A stretch of 64,000 bases of DNA from an uncultured Methanosarcinaceae archaeon (GCA_963833425.1 CAWHXP010000008.1:404578-468577); one strand, 5' to 3'; counted from the first letter of the stretch, positions 1 to 27,304 are shown. Translations and numbers: made by a program. The notes: generated by a model from the letters alone, not told the origin.

Positions 1-647
1 TTGCAAGGGCAGAAGACAATATTTTAAAAATATCTATGCTTCTTGAAATTGGCAAAAAAGAGCCTTCTCATGAGATCACAGAGGATAGTATATCTATCGC
101 TTCTCTTTTAGCCCTTGACTTTTTTCTGCCTTCATTTTCTCAAGTCATGGATAGAATACTCTCCGATATTAAAACTAACAAGATCGAGAAAGCAATCTCA
201 GTAATTCGTAAAATGGGAGAAACATGTAATAGAGGCACACTTATTAAAAACGGCCATTTTACAGCAAAAGAAGGCGATGAAATTATTGAAGCAATGGTTA
301 TAGGTTCAATTGTAGATGTAAAAAAAGTAAAAGAAACAAAATTAATTACATATATCTTAAAAAGTGATGCAAAAGTTGTCAATGTTCAATCCACAGAGCT
401 CACAGGTTTGTTTATCAATCTTCGCAATGTTCGCAATCTTCGCAATCTTCGCACATACACTGTAGGTACAACTACCCTTGCGAAGATTGCGAAGATAGAT
501 AATATACCTACATGTAGCGCGTTGCCGGAAGGATCTTCTAGTGTATGTGCGAACATTGCGAATATTGCGAACATCGAACAAAGCTTGTGTTCCAGTGTAG
601 TCTCTGTAGAAGAAGCCGCTAGAATTCTAGAAGAGGAAGGGTTTTGA
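1..647 (+). CDS. C-terminal part of a mobile-element replication protein (DUF3987/primase-helicase-associated type), probably truncated by the window edge
   Basis: A helical/winged-helix-like tail is followed by low-complexity LRN/IAN repeats encoded by DNA repeats. Its TGA abuts the ATG of the polymerase gene. The family assignment is inferred from context. Confidence 0.5.
   Translation, partial: ARAEDNILKISMLLEIGKKEPSHEITEDSISIASLLALDFFLPSFSQVMDRILSDIKTNKIEKAISVIRKMGETCNRGTLIKNGHFTAKEGDEIIEAMVIGSIVDVKKVKETKLITYILKSDAKVVNVQSTELTGLFINLRNVRNLRNLRTYTVGTTTLAKIAKIDNIPTCSALPEGSSSVCANIANIANIEQSLCSSVVSVEEAARILEEEGF
420..580. repeat. Iteron-like 9-bp repeats arranged as a long inverted repeat
   Basis: (C/G)TTCGCAAT x4 at 420-455. 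Reverse-oriented ATTGCGAA copies at 478-494 and 546-572. 429-461 matches the reverse complement of 540-572 at 31 of 33 positions. Confidence 0.9.
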
Positions 648-2325
648 ATGTCTCTTCTTTTCCTTGACATTGAAACCACAGGTTTAAATCCTCTCACTTC
701 AGAACTTGTGACTTTGCAGTTATCGACTCTTTCCGGTAAGTCGATGATAATTAAAGATCCTGTGACCTTAGAAGCTCTTAAACCTAAACTTGAGAAAAAT
801 TTAGTCGTAGGCCATAACATAAAATTCGACTCTAAATTCCTGAAATATCAGTATGGAATAACTCTGTACAATATTTACGATACCTTTATAGTAGAAATAG
901 CAATCTCGGGGGGAAACTTGCTCGACGAAAAGGAGCATCACTCAAAGATCTAGTTTTTAAGTACTGTAGTGTCACTCTCGATAAGTCTGAACAGTGCAGA
1001 TTCAAGAAAGGTGAACAACTAACTGCCGAGCAGGAAAAGTATGCCCTTAATGACTTGAAATATCTTCCTGAAATTATGAAACAACAGCAAGCAAAAATAA
1101 CCTTGCTCGGCTTAGAAAATATAATTGATATTGAGATGAAATGTCTTCCTGCAGTAGTATGGTTAGAGCTTTCCGGTTTCCATGTGGACTTTGAGAAATT
1201 AGAAGAAATAAAAGCTACAATTCAAAATAAGTACCAAGAGACTGGAGCCTTCCTCCAAAAAGAACTTATTACTTTTGATAAACAATGTCAGTTAGATGGC
1301 ACGTTTGTTTCTAATGAATTGAATTTAAGCAGTCCTGAACAGCTGAAACAGGCTCTAAGGAACAAAGGTTATGACATTAATGGAACAGACGTAAAAACAA
1401 GAGCAAAGTATGTTAATGATTCTATATTTCAGAATTTATCAGATTTTAAAGAAGCTGAGACACTTCTGAAAATGTTCATTAAACCTTTACCTTCTTACAT
1501 CAATTCTAAAACTCAGCGGATATATTCTGATTTTTGGCAATATGGTGCTACATCCGGGCGGTTCACTTGCGGAAAACCTAACTTACAACAGCAGCCAAGT
1601 AAATTTAAAGATTGGAGAAAGATTTTTACTCCTGAACGTGGAAACAAGCTAATAGTAGCTGATTATTCCCAAATCGAGCTCAGAATTATAGTTCAACTAG
1701 CTAAAGATAAAAAATATATTCGTGCTTATAATGAAGACCTTGGCCTGCACAAAAATACAGCTGCAGTCATGTTTAAAGTGCCTGTGGATCAGGTTACTAA
1801 ACAGCAAAGAGGGATAGCAAAATCAGTTAATTTTGGTTTGAATTATGGTTATGGGTAAAAGGTCTTTAAAAGAGAAACTGAAACTAGAAACGGGTATCGA
1901 TTATACGGAAGATGAGGTAGCAAAGCTTATCGAAAACTTCAAAAACTTATACCCTGATGTAACAAATTATCTTAAAACAATAAGTCAAAAAGGCTTCAAT
2001 CGACTCGAAGTTAGAAATAAAGCAGGAAGACTTTTCAAATTTGATTAAACCTTCGGCAGAAACAGAAGAGAAATACAATGTGCAGAAAGGTAACATTGAG
2101 CGTGAATGCAAGAATTTTCCGGTTCAAGGTCTTTGTGCTGATATGCTGAAAATAGCAATGGGTAACCTTTTCTTAATCCTTGAGCCTAGAGGGGTGAAAC
2201 TCGTTAATTGTGTCCATGATGAACTTGTTTTTGAGTGCAAGACAGAAGAAGCGGAAGAAGTAGCAACAATTGTAAAAACTGAAATGGAGAAAGCTGGAGC
2301 ACTATTTTTGAAAGACCTACCATGA
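648..2325 (+). pseudogene. polA: Family A DNA polymerase (3'-5' exonuclease plus polymerase domains) with three frameshifts and a truncated C-terminus
   Basis: ExoI LDIETTG, ExoII GHNIKFD, TSGRFTCGKPNLQQ, motif A ADYSQIELR, motif B RGIAKSVNFGLNYG, motif C VHDE. Frame changes occur near 910, 1850 and 2045. Confidence 0.92.
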
Positions 2326-2653
2326 AACAAGAAAGCGATCCAGAAATTAGTTGAGCCAAAAAGAGCACAAAAGCGAAAAATTAGATTTAATATAAGTTGA
2401 AGGAAAATAAAGATAGTTAGAACAATTAAATGCAAAATAATGAATAGAGGTATCCGACAGGTTGCGTCAACAACCTGCCGGTGCCCAAGTCACCAAAAAT
2501 TAAAAATGTTATTTGATGAAAACAGGCATTGTATTCAATATATTGATTACTGTTTTCATTGAAATAGATTCCCCTTCGGGGGCTATTTGAGTCTCCTGGG
2601 CTATTCTGACCGACTTAATTTATATTTTAAAAAAATAATTAAGAGGTAATTAG

Positions 2654-2971
2654 ATGATAATTCAAAAATATTTTAATGATATGGCAACGGAAGATCAAAA
2701 AGATTTAACTGTTCAATTCGAAGAAAAGTTAAAATCGCTGTCGGATGAGTATAACCTTACAATAATTAATATAAATCTCGAATACATAGTAAACTTGCTT
2801 GATTATTTACCAGAAATATTAGACAGTTTTAAGCCTGAAACGAATCCAAAACTTCAGTCTGCATTGATGAAAGTGAGCATGTTAAAGGAGTTAATTCCGA
2901 AAAGCGCAGAGGAATTTGAATCTTTGGATATTTTAAAAGTGTTGCTCGAATGTCACACAGATATATTCTAA
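2654..2971 (+). CDS. Hypothetical protein
   Basis: 105-aa ORF preceded by the RBS-like GAGGT. No motif recognised. Confidence 0.55.
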   Translation: MIIQKYFNDMATEDQKDLTVQFEEKLKSLSDEYNLTIININLEYIVNLLDYLPEILDSFKPETNPKLQSALMKVSMLKELIPKSAEEFESLDILKVLLECHTDIF

Positions 2972-3399
2972 GATGGGAAATCTGTGGAAATCGAGACGTT
3001 GGAAGATGGTACATTGAGAATCTCGGCAGCGGATAATTAAAAGAATTTAATAAAATACAACAAAAATTGAGATATATGATCCCAGGACAGCATGGTCCTT
3101 GTCCTAGGCGATTAGGGCCGTTATTTTGAATAATGATATCAGTATCAATAGCTATCTCCTTCAGAATATATTATTGATAATGATTCTAGTGTTTATGGGT
3201 TCTTTTTGTCTCTTATAATTCAAGAGAGGTCATTTATATGATATATTTTAAATACATTCAAAGTGGTATTAATAATTTCTCCCACGGTTTTGGCAGCACG
3301 AGGTCTCATATTGCCGACACTTCATTTGTCACATCTATAGATGGTTACAAAGACAATGGACCTTGTCAAATGAATATTTTTTAATATACGATAAATCTA

Positions 3400-4590
3400 T
3401 TGGGGGATTTCTTGTTGGATCTGATTATTGATGACGAATTTCAGGTATTGATTCCACCATTGTCTTCCAACGAATACCAAACTCTTAAAGAAAATATTCT
3501 AAAGGATGGTTGTAGGGATTCACTTGTATTATGGAATAAAATCCTGGTAGATGGGTATAACCGTTATAAAATATGCACAGAACATAATCTCAAATTTAAT
3601 GTTGTTGAAAAGCCTTTTGATTCACGGAATGATGTTTGTATCTGGATTATCCAAAATCAACTCGGGAAACGCAATTTACAGTATTTCGCTAGGGCAGAAT
3701 TAGGAGTAACATTAAAACATTTTTTCCAAGAAAAAGGTTTAGAAAACAAAAGAAATGCTGGGAAATTTTATGGTATAAGTGATCTGAACTCTGTAAAAAA
3801 GCTTTTGCCGAATTCAGCAAAACCTATTTTAGACAGTGGTACAAAAATAAATGCACGAGAAGAAGTAGCAAAGATTGCGGGTGTAGGTCATGATACCATT
3901 TCAAAAGTAGAAAAAATTTTAGAAATAGCATCACCCGAAGAAATCGAGAAAGCAAGATCTGGGGAAGTTAGTGTCAATCAAATGTATAGTACAATTAAAC
4001 GAAAAGAAAAAGAAGAGCAAAGGGATCAACATGTAAAAGAAAATATTGAAAAAGTTAAGAATGGAAAGCCCATGGGGGAAATCGATGGTCTATTTCAAAC
4101 TATTGTAATTGATCCACCTTGGGATTGGGGAGATGAGAACGACAATAATCAATTTGGAAGAGCAAAACCAGATTATGCAACCATGCCATTTGAAGAAATA
4201 CTAAAATTTCCTGTAATTAGATTGGCAGATGAAAATTGTCATTTGTATTTGTGGATTACAAATCGGAGTTTTCCGAAGGGATTTGAATTAATTGAAGCAT
4301 GGGGATTCAGATATATAACCTGCCTTACTTGGGTAAAACCGAGTATCGGGCTGGGAAACTATTTTAGGGGAAGTACTGAGCAAGTACTCTTTGCAATAAA
4401 AGTGCATATGCCATTAAAAAGGCATGATGTAGGTACTCATTTTGAAGCTCCAAGAGGAGAAAAACATAGCGATAAACCTAATAAAGTTTATGATCTGATT
4501 GAAAATTGTAGTTATGGGCCTTATTTAGAAATCTTCAGTCGGCATCAACGAGATGGTTGGATTATGTGGGGGGCTGATGCCCAATGTTAA
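3400..4590 (+). CDS. ParB/Spo0J-like N-terminal region fused to an MT-A70 family N6-adenine methyltransferase
   Basis: N-terminus has LIPPLSSNEYQTLKENI...LVDGYNRY...NQLGKRNL and an HTH (AREEVAKIAGVGHDTISK). C-terminus has IDPPW, LYLWITN, AWGFRY, GNYFRGSTE, HSDKP and LEIFSR. Confidence 0.9.
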   Translation: MGDFLLDLIIDDEFQVLIPPLSSNEYQTLKENILKDGCRDSLVLWNKILVDGYNRYKICTEHNLKFNVVEKPFDSRNDVCIWIIQNQLGKRNLQYFARAELGVTLKHFFQEKGLENKRNAGKFYGISDLNSVKKLLPNSAKPILDSGTKINAREEVAKIAGVGHDTISKVEKILEIASPEEIEKARSGEVSVNQMYSTIKRKEKEEQRDQHVKENIEKVKNGKPMGEIDGLFQTIVIDPPWDWGDENDNNQFGRAKPDYATMPFEEILKFPVIRLADENCHLYLWITNRSFPKGFELIEAWGFRYITCLTWVKPSIGLGNYFRGSTEQVLFAIKVHMPLKRHDVGTHFEAPRGEKHSDKPNKVYDLIENCSYGPYLEIFSRHQRDGWIMWGADAQC

Positions 4591-5191
4591 TGATTTCAAA
4601 ACTAAATAAGAATTCAGGCATGATCAATTGTCTAACAAAATCAGAGATGATCAAAGGCAAAAATGGTAAAACTATTTTTAACAACAAATGGCGAAAGTTC
4701 GATGAGCAAACGAATGCTGCTGGCGTGAAGTGTCTAGGTTTTGCAAAGTAAAGGGAAGAATACTAATTTCTTCTTTCTATTTTTTGGAAATTATTATTAT
4801 GGGCATCATAGTTCAGATATTCCAACATATGCGTGATCTACGCAGTGCGTACAATATTATAAAGAATAAGCTGCCAGGGTCTAGTGTTCTCTCTACTGGA
4901 ATCTCACTTATTTAAAGCATTATACAATCACGTTTGAACTTGAGATGCCCATATAACTTTTCATTAGAGTTATCCTGAAGCTGCCATTTTCCTGTGAGTT
5001 CAAATTCGTCTACTAAGCTGAACTCCCCGCTTATATCGATTGAAAAAGTCAATACTGTATAATTTCATTTGGATATGGAGAGTTGTATCAAATCTATTAT
5101 ATTTTATAGGATAACCTAAAGCTCATGAGTACTCCTAAGCATAGATATCTTAAAGCTTTTGTGTTATTGCCCTTTTTATTTTATCTTTTTA

Positions 5192-5899
5192 TCACACAAG
5201 CAGCACTGCTATAAGACCGCTCAAGAAGACGCCATCGAAGGTTCCAGCGCCGCCGATACTTACAATAGGTGCTCCAAGATCGCGAATCTTATTTAGGTTC
5301 ATTAGGTCGGAGTCTATCAATGTCCCAAGAGTTCCTCCTACATAGGCCAGGATGAAAAGGTACTGATTGGGCGCATTGAACATATCGGTCATGGTAAGAG
5401 CTGCCAAGGCTGCCGTAAGAGGTGGGAGCAAAGCTGGAGTTACTATTCCAAGGCCCTTGACTAACTTTGCAGTCCTATTCATCACTATAGCCACGAAAAT
5501 CACACATGCGATTACGTAAGGCAGCGCTGCCGAAAACTTGTAGAGAAGTGCAATTGATATCAGAGTAGGTATCACAGCCCCTCCCAAGTTGATTGCCAGG
5601 ACTGTATCTCTACTCATTTCTCCAACTACAGGTATCCTGTAGGTTACACCGAGGACATGGATATATTCCCCCTGAGCAATAGGCTCTCTAGATTTCAGGT
5701 TTGTGGCTGGCATGTTGATAGCACTACCAACGAGAGAGTCAAGCAGCACAATAAGAGCATGCTCCCAGGAGAAGCCAATTCTGGTAAAAGCAGTCCTTGC
5801 CAGGTCCAAGAACAGTAGGCTCACTTCGATAAATAGCAGAAATGCCATAAACAGCATGAATAACAGGCTTACTGGAATGTAGAACAACCGACGATCCAT
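5192..5899 (-). CDS. DUF1614 family membrane protein
   Basis: Hydrophobic ORF with AINLGGAVIP, GGTLGTLI and SIGGAGTFDGVFLSG. Confidence 0.85.
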   Translation of the reverse strand: MDRRLFYIPVSLLFMLFMAFLLFIEVSLLFLDLARTAFTRIGFSWEHALIVLLDSLVGSAINMPATNLKSREPIAQGEYIHVLGVTYRIPVVGEMSRDTVLAINLGGAVIPTLISIALLYKFSAALPYVIACVIFVAIVMNRTAKLVKGLGIVTPALLPPLTAALAALTMTDMFNAPNQYLFILAYVGGTLGTLIDSDLMNLNKIRDLGAPIVSIGGAGTFDGVFLSGLIAVLLV

Positions 5900-6074
5900 A
5901 AGGCATTTTCCGTTTTTATAGTATAAAATTATTGTAATGGAAAGACTAGAATTTATTGATAATGATTATTCGTTAGTACATTATTATATGATTGATGTTT
6001 TGAAACATTTAAATGTTAGAAAATTTCTTAGTGTCTATTTAGTCTACTAAACTTTCTTTTATCTGTTATTTTGT

Positions 6075-6400
6075 TTATAAAAACCCGGATCTTGGAAGGC
6101 TCTAGCGTATATTAATTACTCCCAGAAGGATTTCTTCATAGCTGCTATCTTTCAATGATCAGGACATGAGAGATGCCTATGACTCTGGTATCTTATCTTG
6201 CTTTTGCTAAACAGGCAGATGCAGTGTTACCGGAAGCTACTAAAACCAGTAATATAGAAATAAAGAATCTCTTCAAGACTTGTGTTTTTGGTGTTCAGCA
6301 TGGACTAGGGCGGAGTCTCTTGCGTTAAAAATTGATAAATCAACTCCATACGCAATCGAACTATTGAGCCATTATAAGCAGAATTATAAAAAATATAGAG
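6075..6400 (+). pseudogene. Remnant of a second, different family A DNA polymerase (motif A-B region)
   Basis: Manual translation across frameshifts: ALAYINYSQKDFFIAA / NDQDMRDAYDSG / YLAFAKQADAVLPEATKTSNIEIKNLFKTCVFGVQHGLG / AESLALKIDKSTPYAIELLSHYKQNYKKY. Confidence 0.7.
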
Positions 6401-6851
6401 CATGTTCTGAAGCGAAGTGGATATCTAACAGCTCGATCGAATATCTCATTTAAAATACAGGAAAATTTAGTAATCATAATTAAATTTAATGTATTATTAT
6501 GAATTATAACATCTGAAACCGTTTCATGCCAATAAATAAATTACCAAATTTATATTATTCTAATGTAATAAAAGTATATAAAAAATATCTCAGACTAACT
6601 TACCGTGTTGTGTAGGTCAAAACATGGAGGTTTAAAATAGGTCCAAAACTGAATGATCCTGGGCTACCAGGTAGACTTTTATAAAAAGTTTGATGAATAT
6701 ACCTTACTAAAAACAATAGCTCAAAGTGGCTGAATGGCTCTTATTTGATTCGACGCATATAAATCCACTTGCATGCCGAACAAAAATAACTTAATATTAA
6801 ATAAAAGCTTAGCTAATATTAAGTATAAAAAATAAAAAAACGGTGTTATCG

Positions 6852-7273
6852 ATGGCAAGACCTAGTAAATTAACTCCAAAAATACAAAAAAGAATCGGTG
6901 AAAATATTGCGCTCGGATTGACTTATAGCTTGCTGCTTCGGCAGCCGGCATAACATACAAGACATTTAATGAATGGATGAACAAGGGGAAGACAGAGAAA
7001 TCTGGTAAACATTATCAATTTTTTAACTATATCCAAAAATGCAATGCAGACGGAGCTAGGAAACTTCTTGAGCGGTTAAATGATGCAGCTGCAACTGGAA
7101 ATTGTCAAGTTTGTATGTGGGTGCTCGAACGGCGTTTCAGTGACGAATTTGGAAAGCGGGTCTATAGGAAAACAAATGTTATTTCAGAGAGTATAAGTGA
7201 AAATGTTGAACTAACAATCAAGGACGGAGATCAAATTAGAAAACAAATTTTAGCGAAGTTTGATGGGAGTTAG
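6852..7273 (+). pseudogene. HTH protein resembling a phage terminase small subunit, frameshifted near 6930
   Basis: MARPSKLTPKIQKRIGENIALGLTYS joins by a 1-nt shift to AASAAGITYKTFNEWMNKG...WVLERRFSDEFGKR. Confidence 0.6.
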
Positions 7274-7380
7274 GAAAGTTACGAGTTATCAGCTGATTAT
7301 GATTTTTATCTGAAACTGAGGTATTTTTAACAGAAAGTTCTTCACTACTAATTTGATCCTATGGTCAATTGTAGTCAGAG

Positions 7381-7670
7381 TTACCAATATCGCCACCAAA
7401 GCTTACTTTTTTCTGCATTCTCCTGAAGCAGTTTAATGTTTAGCATGCTATTTTTCTGGATTAAACTTTGAATATGCAAAGCCTATTTGTGCATATTTTC
7501 ATTTAACTTTTCTATCTTCTTATCCTTTGTATGTAGCTCTCGTCCTTAATGCTTATCGAACAAAAAAGTTATTGGATCCAAATTTTTAGCTTGCCTATTC
7601 TGGCCTGTTGCAGTTCATCATTATCTTTGACTTCATAACTTGAATTCTCACTATAATGCTACTCGGCATG
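7381..7670 (-). pseudogene. Remnant of a plasmid/MGE-type coiled-coil protein with a WW-type C-terminus
   Basis: Fragments KDKKIEKLNENMHK*ALHIQSLIQ and LLQENAEKSKLWWRYW*. Confidence 0.45.
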
Positions 7671-8174
7671 TAAGAGAAGAGTGATTCTTTCTGCTCCGAT
7701 CAAATTTTATGAGCAAAAAAAGCCTTTTTACTCTTCTTTACTAAAATTAATCCAAGTAATCTATTTTTGTGCCTAGATTTTATTATAATCTATTTATTTA
7801 GATCTGTAAATTAACAAAAATCATAACAGCTGTGGGAACACTAACTAAATGACGATTTTTTAATTTTCTTATTTAATTTCTATTTTTTGAAAGAGGGCAT
7901 ACCCTCTCCATTGCTATCGAATGAAAAAACCTGCCTTACGACTTTCCGTATCTTATAAATGATTTATATTCACGATTATACGATTAGATTTTGATCAGAA
8001 ATTAATCGATGTTAAAAAGCTAACAACTTTTGTGATTATAAATCTATAACTATAATAATTTATACAAAAAGTTTAAATCGTTACTACCCTCTAAAAATGT
8101 AGATAAACATTCCAGATCTTGGGAATAATGGTCAAATTTTACTGGCTAATAATATAGAAAAGGAATTGAAATAC

Positions 8175-8300
8175 ATGATCAATAAACATAAATTGTATTC
8201 GATAGCTTTAATTTCAGCAACTACGATTTTTATGCTTGTAAGTATAGCAACCTCAGCACCATTTGCATATATTACAAACTATGGCTACAATGTTGCTTGA
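8175..8300 (+). pseudogene. Signal peptide and start of a YVTN beta-propeller surface protein, truncated
   Basis: MINKHKLYSIALISATTIFMLVSIATSAPFAYITNYG then a stop codon. Confidence 0.6.
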
Positions 8301-8390
8301 TTTTAGACATCAACTGTGTAAATTTCAGAAGTGTTTTTGCGAAAAAATTCACATATGAAAGTCATTAGAAAAAAATCAAGAATTTTAGTG

Positions 8391-10088
8391 TTAGTTTTCA
8401 CTGTCAGCCAAACTCTTGTACGCAACTATAACATCTTGGACTGACTCGAAGATATAGTCTTTACCAATCATTTTTATGATGCCATCTTTATTCAGTTCAT
8501 TCATTACAGGCACAACTACATCACTTAGTACTAAAGTAATATCCCATTTTTTCAGTTGAGTATATACCTTTTTGAGTGCCTCTGCCGAGGTGAAATCCAC
8601 ATCGCCGATATTCGAGGCAGAAATACAAAACCATTTAAGTGCACGAGTATTTTCTGCAAGTGCAATTATTTCTTCTGTGAAGTTATTTTCGTTAGCAAAG
8701 TAGAGATTTGAGCCAAAACGATAGATAATCAAACCTTCAACAGCTTGCTGCTGTTCCGCGAGTGAAATTGTCCTCATACCACCTCCGGCATTTGGAACGA
8801 GCAGTAAGTTAAGCGGTCGGTAACTGTGGCGCAAGTGAGCGATGATCGAGAGCATAATAGCTATCTCAATGCCCTGTTCAACTCCAATAAATATAACCGT
8901 CATAGCTGTTATCAAGGCGACGACGAATTCGACAGGCCGTTGTCTGTGAAGAGCAGTCATACCTTTGATATCGACAAGGTGCAAACCAATGAGTAATACC
9001 ACTGATGAAAGTACACATGTGGGTAAATAGGCTAATGGCTGGGTAAGAAATACCAAAACTATCAAAACAGTGAAGACTGTTGTAAGCTGGGTAAGTTGAG
9101 TATACCCTCCGACACTTTTAACCATTTCTGTTTTAGTTGGACTCCCATTAACCACGAAAGTACCTGATATACCTGCTGCTACATTAGCAAAGCTCAATCC
9201 AATGAGATCTAAATTTTCATTATAAGTGTCTGAGAACTTCATAGCATAAGCCCGAGAAGTTGCAGCACTCTGGGCAAGGATGACAATAAAACAAGCCACT
9301 GATGTGTTAAGGATCTTCGGGATATCAGACAATGAAACTTGGGGAAAAGAAAGATGTGGCAAACCACCTGGTACTGTGCCAAGTATGGTGATACCATAAG
9401 AAGAAAGATCTAATGCCCAGTTTACAGCGATTGCACCAATCATTGCTAATAGTGCACCTGGTACTTTGCTGTGGATCTTTCCACTAAGAGTAATTATCCC
9501 AATCACAGATAAAGAGACCGAGAGTGTGGGAATATTTGTAAGATACAGATATTTGAACAAATATGTGATCTGCATAAGTGTTCCATATGAACCGTGAGGA
9601 ATCCCGAGTACTTCACTAAGCTCTGAGATTGAGATTTGAATGCCGATGCCTGTGAGAAGTCCTATTAGAACTGTGTGAGAAAGAAAATCAGCGAGAAAAC
9701 CGAATTGAAGTAGGCCTCCGAAGAGTAACAAGGCGGCTACAAGAAGGGCGATCATACCAGCATATGCAACATATTTTGTTGATTCGGGAGTAGCTATTGT
9801 CACCAATAAACTTGCCATAATAGCTGCCGTTGCGGAATCAGCTCCAACGGCGAGATGACGGGATGAACCAAAAATAGCAAAAGCTAACATCGGCAGCAGG
9901 ATTGTATATATTCCAGTAACTAAAGGCATGCCTGCAATCTTAGTGTACCCCATGACCTCTGGGATAGCAAGTGCTGCGAATGCGATCCCTGCAGTGATTT
10001 CCCAGGGTACTTGTGCAGGTTTAAGCGGCAAAACTCCCTGAAAAAGGGGGAATTTAAGGGATCTTTTAGGATTTTGTGTAGGTGACAT
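8391..10088 (-). CDS. SulP family anion transporter with STAS domain
   Basis: AIPEVMGY, FGSSRHLAVGADSA, GTFVVNGSPTKT, and STAS LYFAN...DFTS. Confidence 0.95.
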   Translation of the reverse strand: MSPTQNPKRSLKFPLFQGVLPLKPAQVPWEITAGIAFAALAIPEVMGYTKIAGMPLVTGIYTILLPMLAFAIFGSSRHLAVGADSATAAIMASLLVTIATPESTKYVAYAGMIALLVAALLLFGGLLQFGFLADFLSHTVLIGLLTGIGIQISISELSEVLGIPHGSYGTLMQITYLFKYLYLTNIPTLSVSLSVIGIITLSGKIHSKVPGALLAMIGAIAVNWALDLSSYGITILGTVPGGLPHLSFPQVSLSDIPKILNTSVACFIVILAQSAATSRAYAMKFSDTYNENLDLIGLSFANVAAGISGTFVVNGSPTKTEMVKSVGGYTQLTQLTTVFTVLIVLVFLTQPLAYLPTCVLSSVVLLIGLHLVDIKGMTALHRQRPVEFVVALITAMTVIFIGVEQGIEIAIMLSIIAHLRHSYRPLNLLLVPNAGGGMRTISLAEQQQAVEGLIIYRFGSNLYFANENNFTEEIIALAENTRALKWFCISASNIGDVDFTSAEALKKVYTQLKKWDITLVLSDVVVPVMNELNKDGIIKMIGKDYIFESVQDVIVAYKSLADSEN

Positions 10089-10329
10089 ATTCGATATAAT
10101 CTAGTCATATAGTGAATCAAGATTTCCAAGATAAGGATCAAAATTTAATTAATTTAAGTCGAATTTTATTGTTTTTTTAAATTTGAAAAGAAGCCGAAAA
10201 AATTAAAAGGACTTCGATTTTAGTTTTTTTCTCAAGTGTTTCTGTAATTGTTTTCAGGATTTTTATTCTGGAATAGTGCTTGTCATTTGATCCCACAACA
10301 GTCCATTGAGTATTGAATGGTGCTTGTTT

Positions 10330-10570
10330 TATGAAGCATCTCATCAATAGCAATATTATATTCTTCTCATTTGCTCCGATTTAGCCAGTCTTCATCCATT
10401 ATTTTCCAGCTTTTTTCAGGATCATTTTGCCCCCTTCTTTCATTCTTTCTGCGTTAAACGAAGCGAGGCCGCCGTCGATATCAAGAACTTTGCGTTATGG
10501 AGACAGACTTTCCAAAGCTCACATGACATATATTCAGCCTTATTCCATCCCATGAAAACACTTCTATTAT
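10330..10570 (-). pseudogene. SAM-dependent methyltransferase remnant
   Basis: Fragments VFMGWNKAEYMS and KVLDIDGGLASFNAE, separated by frameshifts and stops. Confidence 0.4.
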
Positions 10571-10571
10571 T

Positions 10572-11465
10572 TTAAATTTCTAGGCCGTTGTTCTTCCTAT
10601 CTGGTTTGAATCTGGAGTGCTGCAAGTCCAAAATTTCTCTCAAAACTGCAGGTATTCCCTCTACAATATCCTCGGCAATCAATCCGGGGCCGTTCAGTGT
10701 GGCAATCCGCCCGTGTATCCATGCGGAGGCAGCAGCAGCCTGAAAAATCGGCATTTTTTGCGCGACAAGGCCGAGAATCATCCCCGCCAGAACATCACCC
10801 GCGCCTGCCGTTGCAAGCCACGGCGGAGCGTTATGGTTAACTTGGGCGTCACCATTGGGAGAAGCGATAACTGTTTTGGCCCCCTTCAACAAAACAATGC
10901 ATCCGGCGCGTTGAGCGGCGGCAAAGGCCCGCGAAGGTTTATCTCCATCTATCTCGCCGAACAATCGCATAAACTCGCCCTCGTGCGGAGTCAGCACGCA
11001 ATCGGTGTGCAAGGCTTGAAATAATATTTCCGGCGTGTCCGCAAAATTGGTCAATCCGTCCGCATCCACCACCGTCGGACGCTTGGCTGCCAAAGCCATC
11101 ATAACTTCTGCTTTTTGCGCGGAACCAAGGCCCAGACCAGGGCCTATTAGAAGAGCGGGCTTACGCTCATTGTCGACCAATAACTGCCACTCTTGCGCCG
11201 TGTCGCAGAGACGAACGATTACACTTTCCAGCGCCTCGGTGTAGATCGACAAAGCGACTGCTGGAGAGGCTAGCGTCACGAGTCCAGCGCCAACGCGTTG
11301 CGCTTTGCGGGCTGCTAAACGCGCCGCTCCTGTCATAACCGCTCCCCCGCGGATTAATGCTGTGCCTCGGCTGTACTTATGGCTGTCGGCTTGAGGAAAA
11401 GGAAAAAGACTTTTCCAGACTTCTGGCGTGTTTTCATAGACCCTGCTCGGCGAACGGGCATTCAT
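10572..11465 (-). CDS. nnrD: ADP/ATP-dependent NAD(P)H-hydrate dehydratase (YjeF C-terminal domain only)
   Basis: HKYSRG, GAARLAA, IGPGLG, VVDADGL, LTPHEGEF and LATAGAGDVLAG. Confidence 0.93.
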   Translation of the reverse strand: MNARSPSRVYENTPEVWKSLFPFPQADSHKYSRGTALIRGGAVMTGAARLAARKAQRVGAGLVTLASPAVALSIYTEALESVIVRLCDTAQEWQLLVDNERKPALLIGPGLGLGSAQKAEVMMALAAKRPTVVDADGLTNFADTPEILFQALHTDCVLTPHEGEFMRLFGEIDGDKPSRAFAAAQRAGCIVLLKGAKTVIASPNGDAQVNHNAPPWLATAGAGDVLAGMILGLVAQKMPIFQAAAASAWIHGRIATLNGPGLIAEDIVEGIPAVLREILDLQHSRFKPDRKNNGLEI

Positions 11466-11864
11466 TTTTCTCGTCAGATTTTTCTTCAGCTTTTGGTCTG
11501 CCTCATAAAACTATTTTGTTTAAATAATGAACTTAAAAATGATACGGAAAAATTTTCAATCAATTGAGATATCAATTTCAGTAAGTTTGTCTCCAGCTTA
11601 CTAAAGAGATTTCATTCTTCTTTAAGAACAAAATCAGGAAGAGTTTTCATTAGTATAAATTATTTTTAAGATATTACAGCTTTCAAATACTTAAATACGT
11701 AGGAATTTATCGGAATTCTCTATAGTATGTAGATGCATCTCTTTAACTTTTTTATTTTCCCCATGTCTTCAGTTTCTTTTTGATTATCGTTGTCAAATTC
11801 GTTCATGCCTAAACTTAATCATTGTAATACTTTTAGATATGCACTTATTTATTATAGATAGTAG

Positions 11865-12066
11865 CCACAGATTTTCGCACAAAAACGGTGCATTTTTTCA
11901 GTTTTAGTCGAAATTATAAGACATTTTTGATTAAATTTGAGAAATTTATATTTAACTTTTGATAAAAAAATTAGTATTAGTTCCCGTCTTTTAAAATCAA
12001 TATCTTGAGGATTTATTAATATTTGCTTACGTTTTTCCTTCTAAAGTTTGCAATCCGAAACTGTGG
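11865..12066. mobile_element. Possible ~200-bp MITE or IS remnant
   Basis: Imperfect inverted ends CCACAGATTTTCGCA ... TGCAATCCGAAACTGTGG enclose an AT-rich noncoding interior. Confidence 0.35.
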
Positions 12067-18220: not shown

Positions 18221-19343
18221 ATATACATAAGGTTCAGGATATAAAGTCAAATATGACAAATCGCATTATTGTCGAGGGCAAGATTAGCAGAATGCTAATA
18301 CTTCTTTAACTTGGATAGACCTTGATGGATGCAGTCTAAACTGCGTGTTTCTACAGACTAAGACATTAAAAAATAATGATTTAAATGGGCAGAAGAACCG
18401 TCTAGTATTAAATCATAATTTTACAAATCAGATCTTAATTTTGGTAATCTTGTGATTCAATAAAGATTGCCTTTGGAATTATAGTAATGCTTAGTCTATT
18501 AATTTTTACACAAACTATATCTAATTAGGCTTGCCTTTCCAAAAAAGCATATCCATTTAGCAGCCAGTAATTTAGAGCCTCCGAAAAGTCACTAATGTTG
18601 TATATCTAAATTATGGTAGACTCATGATATTGAGTAGCTGCACTGATTGTGCAAATTGTCGTTTGTGAAAGCTACAGTAAGTCACAACACTTGCTGATAA
18701 TATTTTAACAGGAATTGAATATGTTTTCGAAGTCTGATCCCAAATGAAAAAAGAGCAGGGCAAATTACTCATTTTAGGATGCTAATATGCAATTACCATC
18801 ATTTCCGTATCTTTAATAAGTAAATATTTTATTGAATCGTTTGCTAAAGGAACAAAGATAAAATAATGAGCTACTGTACCAAGGTATAATCAAGTGGTAA
18901 AAATGCAAGACCCGACTACCAACAATGGAGATTACACCTACAAATATTATATCCATTATTATGGTCATTAAAAGTATTCTGCTCAGTAAAGTTCAAAAAA
19001 AAATGACCTTTTTCTCTCACCATGAACGTAGCAAGAACTCCAGAGAAAATAGCGTCTCAAAAACAAAATTATTAAATTATGGTATTGTATTGGAATCCAA
19101 AATAAGGTAAGTAGAGATATTTTCGACAATTAAAGTTTTTTAAAATATAACAGGCTCTTTGTCTTTTCCTTTCATTGCAAAAAAACAGATAACGAACCTA
19201 TAGTCATGCTAACAAAGAAACTTATCAAAATTAAATGTAAAATTTGAAAAATAGAAATATTTTATGACAAATGTTGTTATCTCAGTAAAGGATGGTATTT
19301 ATTGATATTCTTGTGATGTTTTTAGAAATAATTATAAATTATA

Positions 19344-26443: not shown

Positions 26444-27304
26444 GATAATTGATCTTAATTTAAGGTCATGTCTTGTATATTGAAATGATTTGGCACATTT
26501 AAATTTGGGAAATTTTAGTACTTGAATACAATAGCATTTAGCGCAAAAGATCAAATTATCGATAAAAATACATTGGCTATATCGAGAAAGATAGTTACGT
26601 AAAAATTATCTTCAAATGGACAATAGTTTCGACCAAAAACTAGTATATAGATTACTACCATAAATACCCATATTATTTACAATTATCACTTGCAATTATT
26701 TGGAAATAATCAATATTTATCTCTTAAAATAATGAATAGGTAATCCTTTCTGTGACTCTGCAAGGTGCCACAGGAATTTTATGAAAGAGCTGTAATTTTC
26801 CGGATCAGATATACAAATATTGAGTTTTTTGGTTCTTTGTAGTTTCCGATTGATATTATATTTTGTTTTTGAAGGATGAGAAATCCAAGTCTCTTGGGCA
26901 AGTTCAGGTTCAATTTAGCGACAATTTTTTATCGACCAACCATATACAATTGCTATCTGAAAATCCAAATTTTTGTTCAAAGCACCTTTCATTTTCAATA
27001 CCTTAGATTTTCCTAATATAAGCCGTGATCGATTAAAGTTTCAATATTCCAATTTAAAAAAGACATCAACTCGCTTAGTATCTAGGCCTTTCCATCCAAC
27101 TTGTGGCCACAATTTTAATAGGTGATGGCTACTAAAATAATCAAAGGATAGGTCACTTTTTGACATAACAGTAATCTGACTTAAAATGAACTGGACTTTA
27201 GATAAATAGTCAAATATCTAGATAATTCAGATTGGATGCAAATATATCAGAGGAACAAATTAGTTAGCTCCAAAATTTCTACACTATCAAACCCAACCAT
27301 AATT

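Follow-up and report, generated by a model that had tools for sequence, protein, structure and literature searches.

Phage-inducible chromosomal islands (PICIs), among them the Staphylococcus aureus pathogenicity islands (SaPIs), are virus satellites with a recurrent gene plan: integrase, divergent regulator, small DNA-binding protein, primase-helicase with an iteron origin, small genes, terS and cargo, without capsid or large terminase (TerL) genes. They are replicated by the host polymerase. Here we analyse a window of 64,000 nucleotides (the whole stretch of DNA under study, C8:404578-468577 of genome G000, an uncultured Methanosarcinaceae archaeon) whose first 7273 positions are, by their sequence, the right-hand two thirds of an integrated element of at least 12.5 kb in a Methanosarcina chromosome. 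In order, the element carries a tyrosine integrase, a divergent protein of 397 amino acids (aa), an AbrB-like protein, a primase-helicase, a family A DNA polymerase (PolA), a ParB-MT-A70 methylase and a homologue of the small terminase subunit TerS. It is of the PICI size class, follows the PICI plan, likewise has neither capsid nor TerL gene, and its primase domain has SaPI5 PriRep5 as closest solved relative. It differs from PICIs in its archaeal host, in its own proofreading PolA, in its target, an IS200-type transposase gene (tnpA), and in the abundance of its TerS homologues, with 13-55 matches per genome in six related genomes. Because the gene plan is that of a PICI plus a polymerase, with no particle genes, we read window 1-7273 and the 5.2 kb upstream as a defunct, modular Methanosarcina integrative element that worked like a PICI, with a probability of about 0.5. 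The integrated element itself is well supported, as distinct from the satellite role, which we infer from gene content, helper dependence included.

Other described systems share parts of this plan. Phage P4 also combines an integrase with a bifunctional primase-helicase acting on iterons, and helper-dependent particles would be a further common trait if the satellite reading holds; P4 is not known to have a DNA polymerase or terS. P4 remodels the capsid of its helper through Sid and Psu, homologues of which were not seen in the element. Casposons, which also occur in Methanosarcina, are likewise integrated archaeal elements encoding their own DNA polymerase, but they are built from Cas1, a protein-primed PolB and terminal inverted repeats, whereas the element has a tyrosine integrase, PolA with a primase, and attachment (att)-type ends; no Cas1 or PolB family is among the Pfam and PHROG matches of any open reading frame (ORF) scanned. 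The plasmids pSSVx and pSSVi and the haloarchaeal SRCE resemble the element in joining a plasmid-type replication module to a gene borrowed from virus morphogenesis or packaging, but they are parasites of spindle-shaped viruses and carry an ATPase or capsid gene. Passages of a recent preprint (bioRxiv 10.1101/2025.02.15.638363) give pSSVi and pSSVx as the only archaeal satellites known before it, and describe no satellite of tailed archaeal viruses.

The polymerase has been met before. In the relevant passages of Czernecki et al. 2023 (PMC10201439), the apicoplast enzyme is placed in cluster 8, 'Hot Spring 1', Methanomicrobia members of two PolA subfamilies are listed, as are AEP-primase fusions, a CHEAP/CCPol group is reported in Methanomicrobia, and the context of archaeal PolA is called 'not indicative of a prophage'. 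A methanogen PolA of the window's subfamily has been in print since 2023 without an integrase-TerS context; here, by contrast, the context is an integrase/TerS element, which gives a genomic setting to a published puzzle, methanogen PolAs of two subfamilies being cargo of one integrase-TerS family. The Methanosarcina passages of PMC4158269 hold no such element, and the literature that we searched (subscription journals outside its coverage) contains no description of the element family or of archaeal integration into IS200-type genes. An earlier interpretation of the window from its sequence alone (hereafter the sequence-only reading) had spoken of a poorly described class, and the family is apparently undescribed. 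The window copy itself is a dead mobile element and ordinary in that sense; it is the family that has several unusual traits.

Gene plan, relatives and attachment sites

We also examined 25 kb 5' of the window; positions there carry negative window coordinates, and coordinates in the extended locus L003 equal window coordinates plus 12000. The sequence-only reading had the gene list largely right and was correct that the left end lies beyond the window, where we place the left att site at -5222..-5210. Its statement that no integrase gene is visible does not survive extension of the view: a tyrosine integrase, split into two ORFs (-5165..-4027), lies 4 kb upstream. The upstream DNA, which that reading had singled out for inspection, holds primase, integrase and att site alike.

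Intact homologues with conserved synteny exist both in genomes of the genus and in metagenomes. The order integrase, primase(-helicase), PolA is kept in four genomes of the same genus (G017, G018, G019 and G001; the integrase where the contig reaches), and 66 metagenome loci encode relatives. On one metagenome contig, L157, all ORFs are open and the full order can be read: integrase, a 400-aa protein on the opposite strand, AbrB, primase-helicase, PolA, a DIP2311-like protein, a 210-aa protein and TerS, flanked by a HAD-type hydrolase gene upstream and by a P-type ATPase gene and then hydrogenase genes downstream. At the DNA level, the copy on G067:C36 is 82-88% identical to ours over window -5214..2324, a span that begins before the integrase and closes with the final base of PolA, and, after a variable 1.4 kb, again 71% identical over window 6547-7260; the conserved block around TerS starts at 6547. 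Of 11 close relatives whose sequence continues for at least 2.2 kb beyond PolA, 6 have TerS there.

Within this integrase-TerS frame, replication modules are interchangeable. Besides the window type (PrimPol-DUF3987 with PolA), we found a DnaG-type primase with a Toprim-domain putative helicase and PolA (G065:C4, G064:C1), a 197-aa protein with a divergent PolA-like protein (G000 C18 and C21), and a PrimPol with a winged helix-turn-helix (HTH) protein and no PolA (G000 C5, C9, C10 and C20). Judged by these gene orders, the family is defined by its integrase and TerS homologue, PolA being one of several interchangeable modules. What follows TerS is varied and cellular. From TerS to the right att site, C21 (13357-19620) encodes two transporters, one of the CDF family and one of SBF/ACR3 type, together with a pyridine-nucleotide disulphide oxidoreductase and a low-molecular-weight (LMW) phosphatase, a combination that looks like a set for metals or arsenic; C18 (7600-17842) has a split MCRA-family gene, and G064:C1 has NfeD, SPFH, Usp and cupredoxin genes. 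In G067:C36 hisI lies within ~600 bp after TerS, and in L157 the P-type ATPase gene begins ~840 bp after it. No capsid, portal or TerL family was found in the scanned ORFs of the element or its relatives (L017-L020, L024, L026, L028, L050, L051, L054, L055, L157), nor any PF03354, PF03237 or PF05065 match in G000; the lack of a capsid gene that the sequence-only reading had recorded for the window holds for the intact relatives too.

What revealed the att site was a repeat that precedes the integrase; a general search for repeats near the window copy and four relatives gave no convincing att repeat. The core lies ~45 bp upstream of the integrase, which ends in a C-terminal zinc ribbon. Left of the junction is a dispersed repeat of ~550 bp with 58 BLAST matches in G000, 43 of which span the junction or core, while 5 end and 4 begin there. 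The repeat is a decayed IS200-type transposase gene (Y1_Tnp, PF01797, E 7e-13 in one copy; an Rfam scan gave a single chance match, E 0.31), and the left att site sits inside it at the codons directly after the HUH motif, the core coinciding with codons F-V-G-A-E-P. Host homology with four relatives ends at window -5207 and element homology with G067:C36 begins at -5214, and the left tnpA half stops at the same base before the integrase in five loci from four sources (L003, L026, L051, L052, L157). Both ends are preserved in G064:C1 (L026), where the exact 13-bp core GTTGGAGCTGAAC occurs at 4248-4260 and 18553-18565, enclosing a 14.3-kb element, with the two tnpA halves outside and imperfect inverted arms beside the core on the element side. 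Arm motifs also identify paired ends in G000, at 784/17842 on C18 and 26662/13357 on C21.

The window copy keeps the left arm and a decayed left core with 4 mismatches to the 13-mer. Since direct att repeats are present in relatives and absent here, this copy must be truncated or rearranged. The neighbouring RFC gene, in window -8686..-5207, adjoins a radical-SAM/ribosomal S3Ae block in G064 and G067; in G000 that block lies ~160 kb away (C8:233640-241764), beside an inverted, 90%-identical integrase copy. The displacement suggests, from gene positions, an inversion between element copies, and the right end of the window copy was probably removed by recombination between such copies.

According to parts of a 2021 review of tyrosine recombinases (PMC8371274), most archaeal att sites are in tRNA genes. 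Site-specific integration into a multi-copy insertion sequence (IS) transposase gene is an unusual choice of target. It would in part account for how numerous the copies are in this clade and for genomes that are rearranged and poor in genes: multi-copy landing pads would explain the 13-55 TerS matches that each of six genomes of a single Methanosarcina clade has. Long ORFs (150 aa or more) make up 45.6% of G000 (4.07 Mb in 21 contigs, 36% G+C, completeness 80%) and 49.9% of a G064 sample, as compared with 70.9% of a 200-kb sample of a complete congener; completeness scores are 73-92% for G000 and its relatives. Together, G000, G019, G055, G064, G065 and G067 look like a lineage swamped by mobile elements and pseudogenes.

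Two smaller observations concern the target and the arms. All 24 Pfam matches to the IS200-type Y1 transposase in G000 are defective, 23 with internal stops (for example C11:140574-140939 and C3:515465-515801) and 1 a short fragment, and no intact tnpA that could account for the 58 repeat copies was found in this genome. An orphan right-end arm motif with 2 mismatches, followed by 'gtagt', lies at window 26659-26678 on the minus strand; from there to the right end of the window the sequence yielded neither an integrase nor a TerS homologue, and the motif is probably the scar of another element.

Replication module and family A polymerase

The ORF open at the start of the window (1..647; in frame 3-647) comprises the last 214 codons of an intact 802-aa primase-helicase that starts 1761 bp upstream. 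It matches phrog_1829 (PrimPol, E 1e-60), PF22763 (E 1.9e-13) and PF13148 (DUF3987, E 3.4e-16), as well as phrog_3022 (E 2.7e-59). Among solved structures, chain 7ola_A comes closest to residues 11-289 (E 4.9e-26), and chains named 'Primase' are also close; passages of PMC9371898 identify 7OLA as SaPI5 PriRep5. Elsewhere, a PriCT-DUF3987 protein is reported in part of PMC11724360 to be a 5'-3' helicase aiding a PrimPol, and part of PMC5862659 treats DUF3987 and DUF927 as predicted helicases fused to primases. The gene abuts PolA, its TGA at 645-647 being followed by the PolA ATG at 648; it is the replication-type ORF seen next to PolA in the sequence-only reading.

Inside the 3' part of this gene lies a cluster of 9-bp units: four direct ones of the CAATCTTCG type at 416-452, and inverted ones at 478-496 (two) and 547-575 (three). 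Of seven exact TTCGCAAT sites in the 64-kb window, six fall within 416-575. We compared the cluster with G067, with G019 and with contigs from public sequencing runs, namely three peat or wetland metagenomes (X1, X2 and X3) and one metatranscriptome, whose contigs derive from relatives; no public run shares more than 0.18 of sampled words with the locus, and the source run is not among the indexed runs. Across G067, G019 and the contigs of X1, X2 and X3, unit number varies by multiples of 9 bp, which keeps the frame open. From its arrangement, the cluster is a candidate replication origin. Contigs of the RNA run cover portions of the relatives' primase-helicase and PolA, which is no proof of transcription.

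Two domains are recognised in PolA, a 3'-5' exonuclease (PF01612, E 4e-10 and 3e-7) and a polymerase (PF00476, E 1.6e-42 and 7e-18), and because the exonuclease domain begins at residue 6 there is no space for a 5'-3' nuclease, exactly the domain content attributed to it earlier. Three 1-nt indels, near 908 (907), 1849 and 2045, scatter the gene over four frames; its exonuclease and polymerase motifs, all catalytic motifs included, are still readable, and relative to an intact 571-aa homologue (88% identical) it ends at residue 558. Intact relatives in G017, G018, G019 and G001 are 549-615 aa long. Among solved structures, the apicoplast PREX polymerase 5dku scores best (E 1.9e-59; Klenow, E 1.9e-48). 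Like that enzyme the element PolA has an exonuclease-proficient, Klenow-like core without a 5' nuclease, and judged by closest solved structure it is of the 'Hot Spring 1'/apicoplast-like type. Also in common with this group, PolA is coupled to a primase-helicase and is apparently fused to it in three copies. In G067:C36 (L024:11330-15073, minus strand) the stop between the two genes is replaced by CAA to give a 1248-aa frame, and PolA-containing open frames of 1589 and 1538 aa occur in G052:C76 (15413-16510) and G255:C9 (9449-10513). The G067:C36 frame would be a single-polypeptide primase-helicase-polymerase, like apicoplast PREX with a different primase, since the primase of the element is a PrimPol-DUF3987 protein (DnaG type in other copies) in place of a TOPRIM-helicase polyprotein.

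A second published resemblance concerns the sister copies on C18 and C21 and not the window PolA. There (C18:3939-6280; L051:3939-4529 and 4520-6280) a 197-aa protein is followed by a 587-aa PolA-like protein (PF00476, E 8e-28), a pair that recalls the MP-CCPol pair of SCCmec (CHEAP, cluster 15); the 587-aa protein has no Pfam exonuclease match and gives weak matches to PDB chains named DNA polymerase I.

The sequence-only reading started from the statement that archaea replicate with PolB or PolD and that PolA is typical of bacteria and phages. The premise of a PolA foreign to archaea needs softening, because PF00476 matches 37 of 401 sampled genomes of the phylum and Methanomicrobia members are published. 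The distribution of this particular PolA is narrow: a 340-aa fragment has counterparts in 4 of the 24 congeners sampled but none in 16 genomes of other families in the order. The names that PolA homologues carry place G000 in Methanosarcina. We considered and rejected a role as a host repair enzyme, as the gene is present in only those 4 of 24 congeners, always beside a primase gene and with an integrase upstream where the contig extends. In a phage collection, the PolA query retrieved 4609 records, all below 60% identity and ~31% at best among the matches listed.

On this gene content, the primase-helicase would bind the iterons, melt the DNA and prime, and PolA would elongate, a two-protein replisome comparable to T7 gp4/gp5. 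Such a replisome, fused in some copies, together with an integrase that has a short defined site, would offer compact parts for trial in Methanosarcina genetics.

Other polymerase sequences were noted in passing. The second PolA remnant proposed earlier, at 6233-6472, finds weak support: it aligns with residues ~388-457 (the motif B region) of several 571-aa PolAs at E 0.01-0.08, non-significant alone. Three further relics in G000 (C7:286300-287037 and C13:128869-129275, both with stops, and C8:160784-160936) are 37-47% identical to element PolAs. Outside the genus, PF00476 matches occur in 19 of 24 genomes of family f11 (for example G079, G100 and G139), including 15 of 18 of genus g27, in open frames of ~590-690 aa, and are patchy in the rest of the phylum; f11 may, on these counts, be a lineage with a fixed family A polymerase.

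TerS homologue, decay and competing explanations

The HTH ORF at 6929-7273, described before as terminase-small-like, matches the small terminase family phrog_4102 (E 6e-16) and has a frameshift of its own: from ~6852 the first 33 codons are read in a different frame, giving two high-scoring segments in two frames. Intact sister copies (140-158 aa) match nearly the full length of the same profile at E 9e-22 to 5e-25. A TerS profile finds 20 of 59 genomes of the genus, with 13-55 matches each in G000 (37), G019, G064, G065, G067 and G055 and 0-3 weaker ones in the other 53; by tblastn, G000 has 28 TerS loci, 6 of them full length without stops. No other gene of the family is kept as widely as TerS, which recurs with three different replication modules.

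Searching IMG/VR with an 8-row TerS alignment gave 177 relatives, the best 46% identical. Most of the 22 viral contigs with ORFs listed have an ORF of 395-505 aa directly 3' of TerS, and in 7 of 7 contigs scanned the ORF next after TerS is TerL; one of them (L095) continues with portal and Mu-F genes. The top match, L069, has a TerL that shares 72% identity with an intact gene of G016, a Methanosarcina genome, which indicates that these contigs come from Methanosarcina-type tailed viruses. A profile search of the PDB with the TerS alignment gave no meaningful match, and a predicted complex of viral TerL with element TerS, run without controls, scored 0.00. As a separate observation, G000 contains at C2:103835-104456 a TerL relic with a stop, 34-39% identical to the L069 TerL, the sole tailed-virus trace found in this genome. 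A scan of G000 for CRISPR arrays with a simple script found five tandem-repeat loci, none of them array-like.

If the element was a satellite, its TerS homologue would redirect the terminase of a helper tailed virus onto element DNA, the divergent 397-aa protein and the AbrB-like protein would form a switch, and the methylase would protect element DNA. PICI-type satellites would then extend to tailed archaeal viruses. A fuller proposal would give head-tailed archaeal viruses their first PICI-like satellites, small islands with their own replisome, a TerS of Methanosarcina-virus origin that steals packaging, and the HUH region of dead IS200-type tnpA genes as multi-copy landing pads. It is tentative, and we rate it at somewhat below an even chance.

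Several results weigh against a satellite. Among the 11 close relatives, 5 had no TerS after PolA, and TerS homologues, being HTH proteins, could act as regulators or excision factors; the structure predicted from the 8-row alignment (mean predicted local distance difference test score 50.7) is too poor for fold comparison. G000 has no helper virus, the TerL relic apart, and none of 23 whole metagenome contigs has terminal overlaps indicative of a circular form. IMG/VR, scanned with a single PolA query, gave 12 pattern matches, none confirmed, and the elements were not found there. The iteron cluster was weighed by site count within the window only. The window copy has no right att core at up to 3 mismatches in 2300-12000, save one chance match inside the methylase gene, and no flanking direct repeat was found around it; frameshifts in a multi-copy repeat could, moreover, in part be assembly errors. 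A scan of G000 for CRISPR arrays with a simple script found five tandem-repeat loci, none of them array-like.

The main alternative accepts the same element, integration and replication, and makes it a virus-independent integrative plasmid or genomic island that spread vertically or by an unknown route; its TerS would have been taken over for regulation through DNA binding or for the role of a recombination directionality factor. We regard this as a substantial possibility that still falls short of being probable. The absence of TerS from those 5 relatives suits it, as do its weak MerR-like HTH matches (phrog_2474), the lack of TerL, portal and capsid in G000, and the island-type cargo after TerS (CDF, ACR3/SBF-type, LMW phosphatase, oxidoreductase, MCRA, SPFH/NfeD, Usp). 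A recruited HTH regulator sits less easily with a match to TerS families that is nearly full length and extends beyond the HTH, with relatives in the canonical TerS position in every viral contig scanned, with retention of TerS over three replication modules, or with an open TerS in at least 6 of 28 G000 loci. The sequence-only reading had left a choice between a decayed, self-replicating integrative element and a provirus; synteny, integrase and att sites uphold an integrative element with its own replication module, and the provirus falls for want of structural genes. That the locus is what remains of a full tailed provirus after deletion of its structural genes, as its broken genes and its TerS and ParB-methylase, both typical of phages, might suggest, is highly improbable: the same compact arrangement is met repeatedly with every core ORF open and structural genes absent, genes of cellular type follow TerS (hisI in G067:C36, the P-type ATPase in L157), and paired att ends bound 13-17 kb with only cellular cargo after TerS.

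A further alternative concerns the copy and not the family: its frameshifts would be assembly errors and the copy functional. A completeness of 80%, the low long-ORF coverage given above, the readable catalytic motifs and the nature of the PolA indels, two of three being a single extra T and one lying in a G run, all speak for error. However, when 20 conserved host genes (350 aa or longer) were compared with a complete congener, 16 gave single intact matches, with 3 frame changes in 34 kb (0.09 per kb), as against 3 in 1.7 kb (~1.8 per kb) in PolA; decay of the window copy exceeds the assembly background. The contigs of relatives from the public runs have one base more at 907 (X1, X2, X3) and one less at 1849 and 2045 (all four runs), so the PolA indels are peculiar to this copy. 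The neighbouring 2.4-kb primase-helicase gene is intact, the integrase and TerS genes are broken as well, by one frame change each, and the right att site is absent. We consider a functional copy unlikely; with integrase, PolA and TerS frameshifted and the right att lost, the window copy is probably immobile.

Feature map and variable segment

The features of the element and its borders are collected in Table 1. The 397-aa protein gave no usable match in an ESM Atlas look-up (best score 0.84), and between 7274 and 8390, the stretch examined for the coiled-coil remnant of the sequence-only reading, no ORF matches any Pfam or PHROG family.

Table 1. Features of the integrated element and its flanks, in window coordinates
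Feature	Position	Strand	Remarks
Host RFC large-subunit gene	-7435..-5639	-	Outside the element, left
Tyrosine integrase, 1 frameshift	-5165..-4027		150-aa SAM-like ORF and 189-aa catalytic ORF with zinc ribbon; PF00589
397-aa protein without assigned function		Opposite to integrase	Between integrase and AbrB-like ORF
AbrB/MazE-like ORF, 80 aa			23.6 bits, slightly below the Pfam cut-off
Primase-helicase, 802 aa, intact	-1761..647 (L003:10239-12647)	+	PrimPol, NrS-1-type HBD, DUF3987
Candidate iteron origin	416-575		Inside the primase-helicase coding sequence
PolA pseudogene	648-2325	+	PF01612 and PF00476
105-aa ORF	2654-2971	+	Homologues in sister elements of G000; no family match
ParB-like/MT-A70 methylase (predicted), 396 aa, intact	3400-4590	+	PF05063, phrog_359
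DUF1614 membrane protein gene	5192-5899	-	PF07758, E 1.6e-52
Possible second-PolA relic, weak	6233-6472	+	Motif B region, internal stops
TerS homologue, pseudogene	6852-7273	+	phrog_4102; 1 frameshift near 6929-6953
AT-rich non-coding stretch, 1.1 kb	7274-8390		3' of TerS; right boundary of the element not defined
SulP transporter gene		-	After the non-coding stretch

Between PolA and the TerS block, the window departs from its relatives. In G064:C5 the end of PolA is followed by 1.55 kb with two small genes and then by 92% identity to window 6783-8987; by this comparison, window 2325-6782, with the 105-aa ORF, the methylase, the DUF1614 gene and the PolA-like relic, replaces the usual small-gene module. 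The 105-aa ORF has homologues of 41-49% identity in four other integrase-TerS elements of G000 (C5, C9, C10 and C20).

The methylase gene that had been called ParB-MT-A70 is an intact ORF. Matches to PF05063 (E 1.2e-21) and phrog_359 (E 2.4e-50) and a DPPW motif make its product a predicted N6-adenine DNA methyltransferase, while the ParB-like part is recognised by PHROG alone (phrog_12047, E 4.2e-7). Decayed copies lie elsewhere in G000, and in the closest viral contigs a ParB_N-methylase gene stands one or two ORFs before TerS.

The DUF1614 gene is a single-copy gene in 52 of 58 other genomes of the genus, whose copies are at most 55% (mostly ~50%) identical to that of the window. Among the five closest relatives, a search gave nothing in G064, G067, G019 and G055 and a weak partial match in G065. 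G000 has no second DUF1614 gene; that of the window probably represents cargo or a host gene that was displaced.

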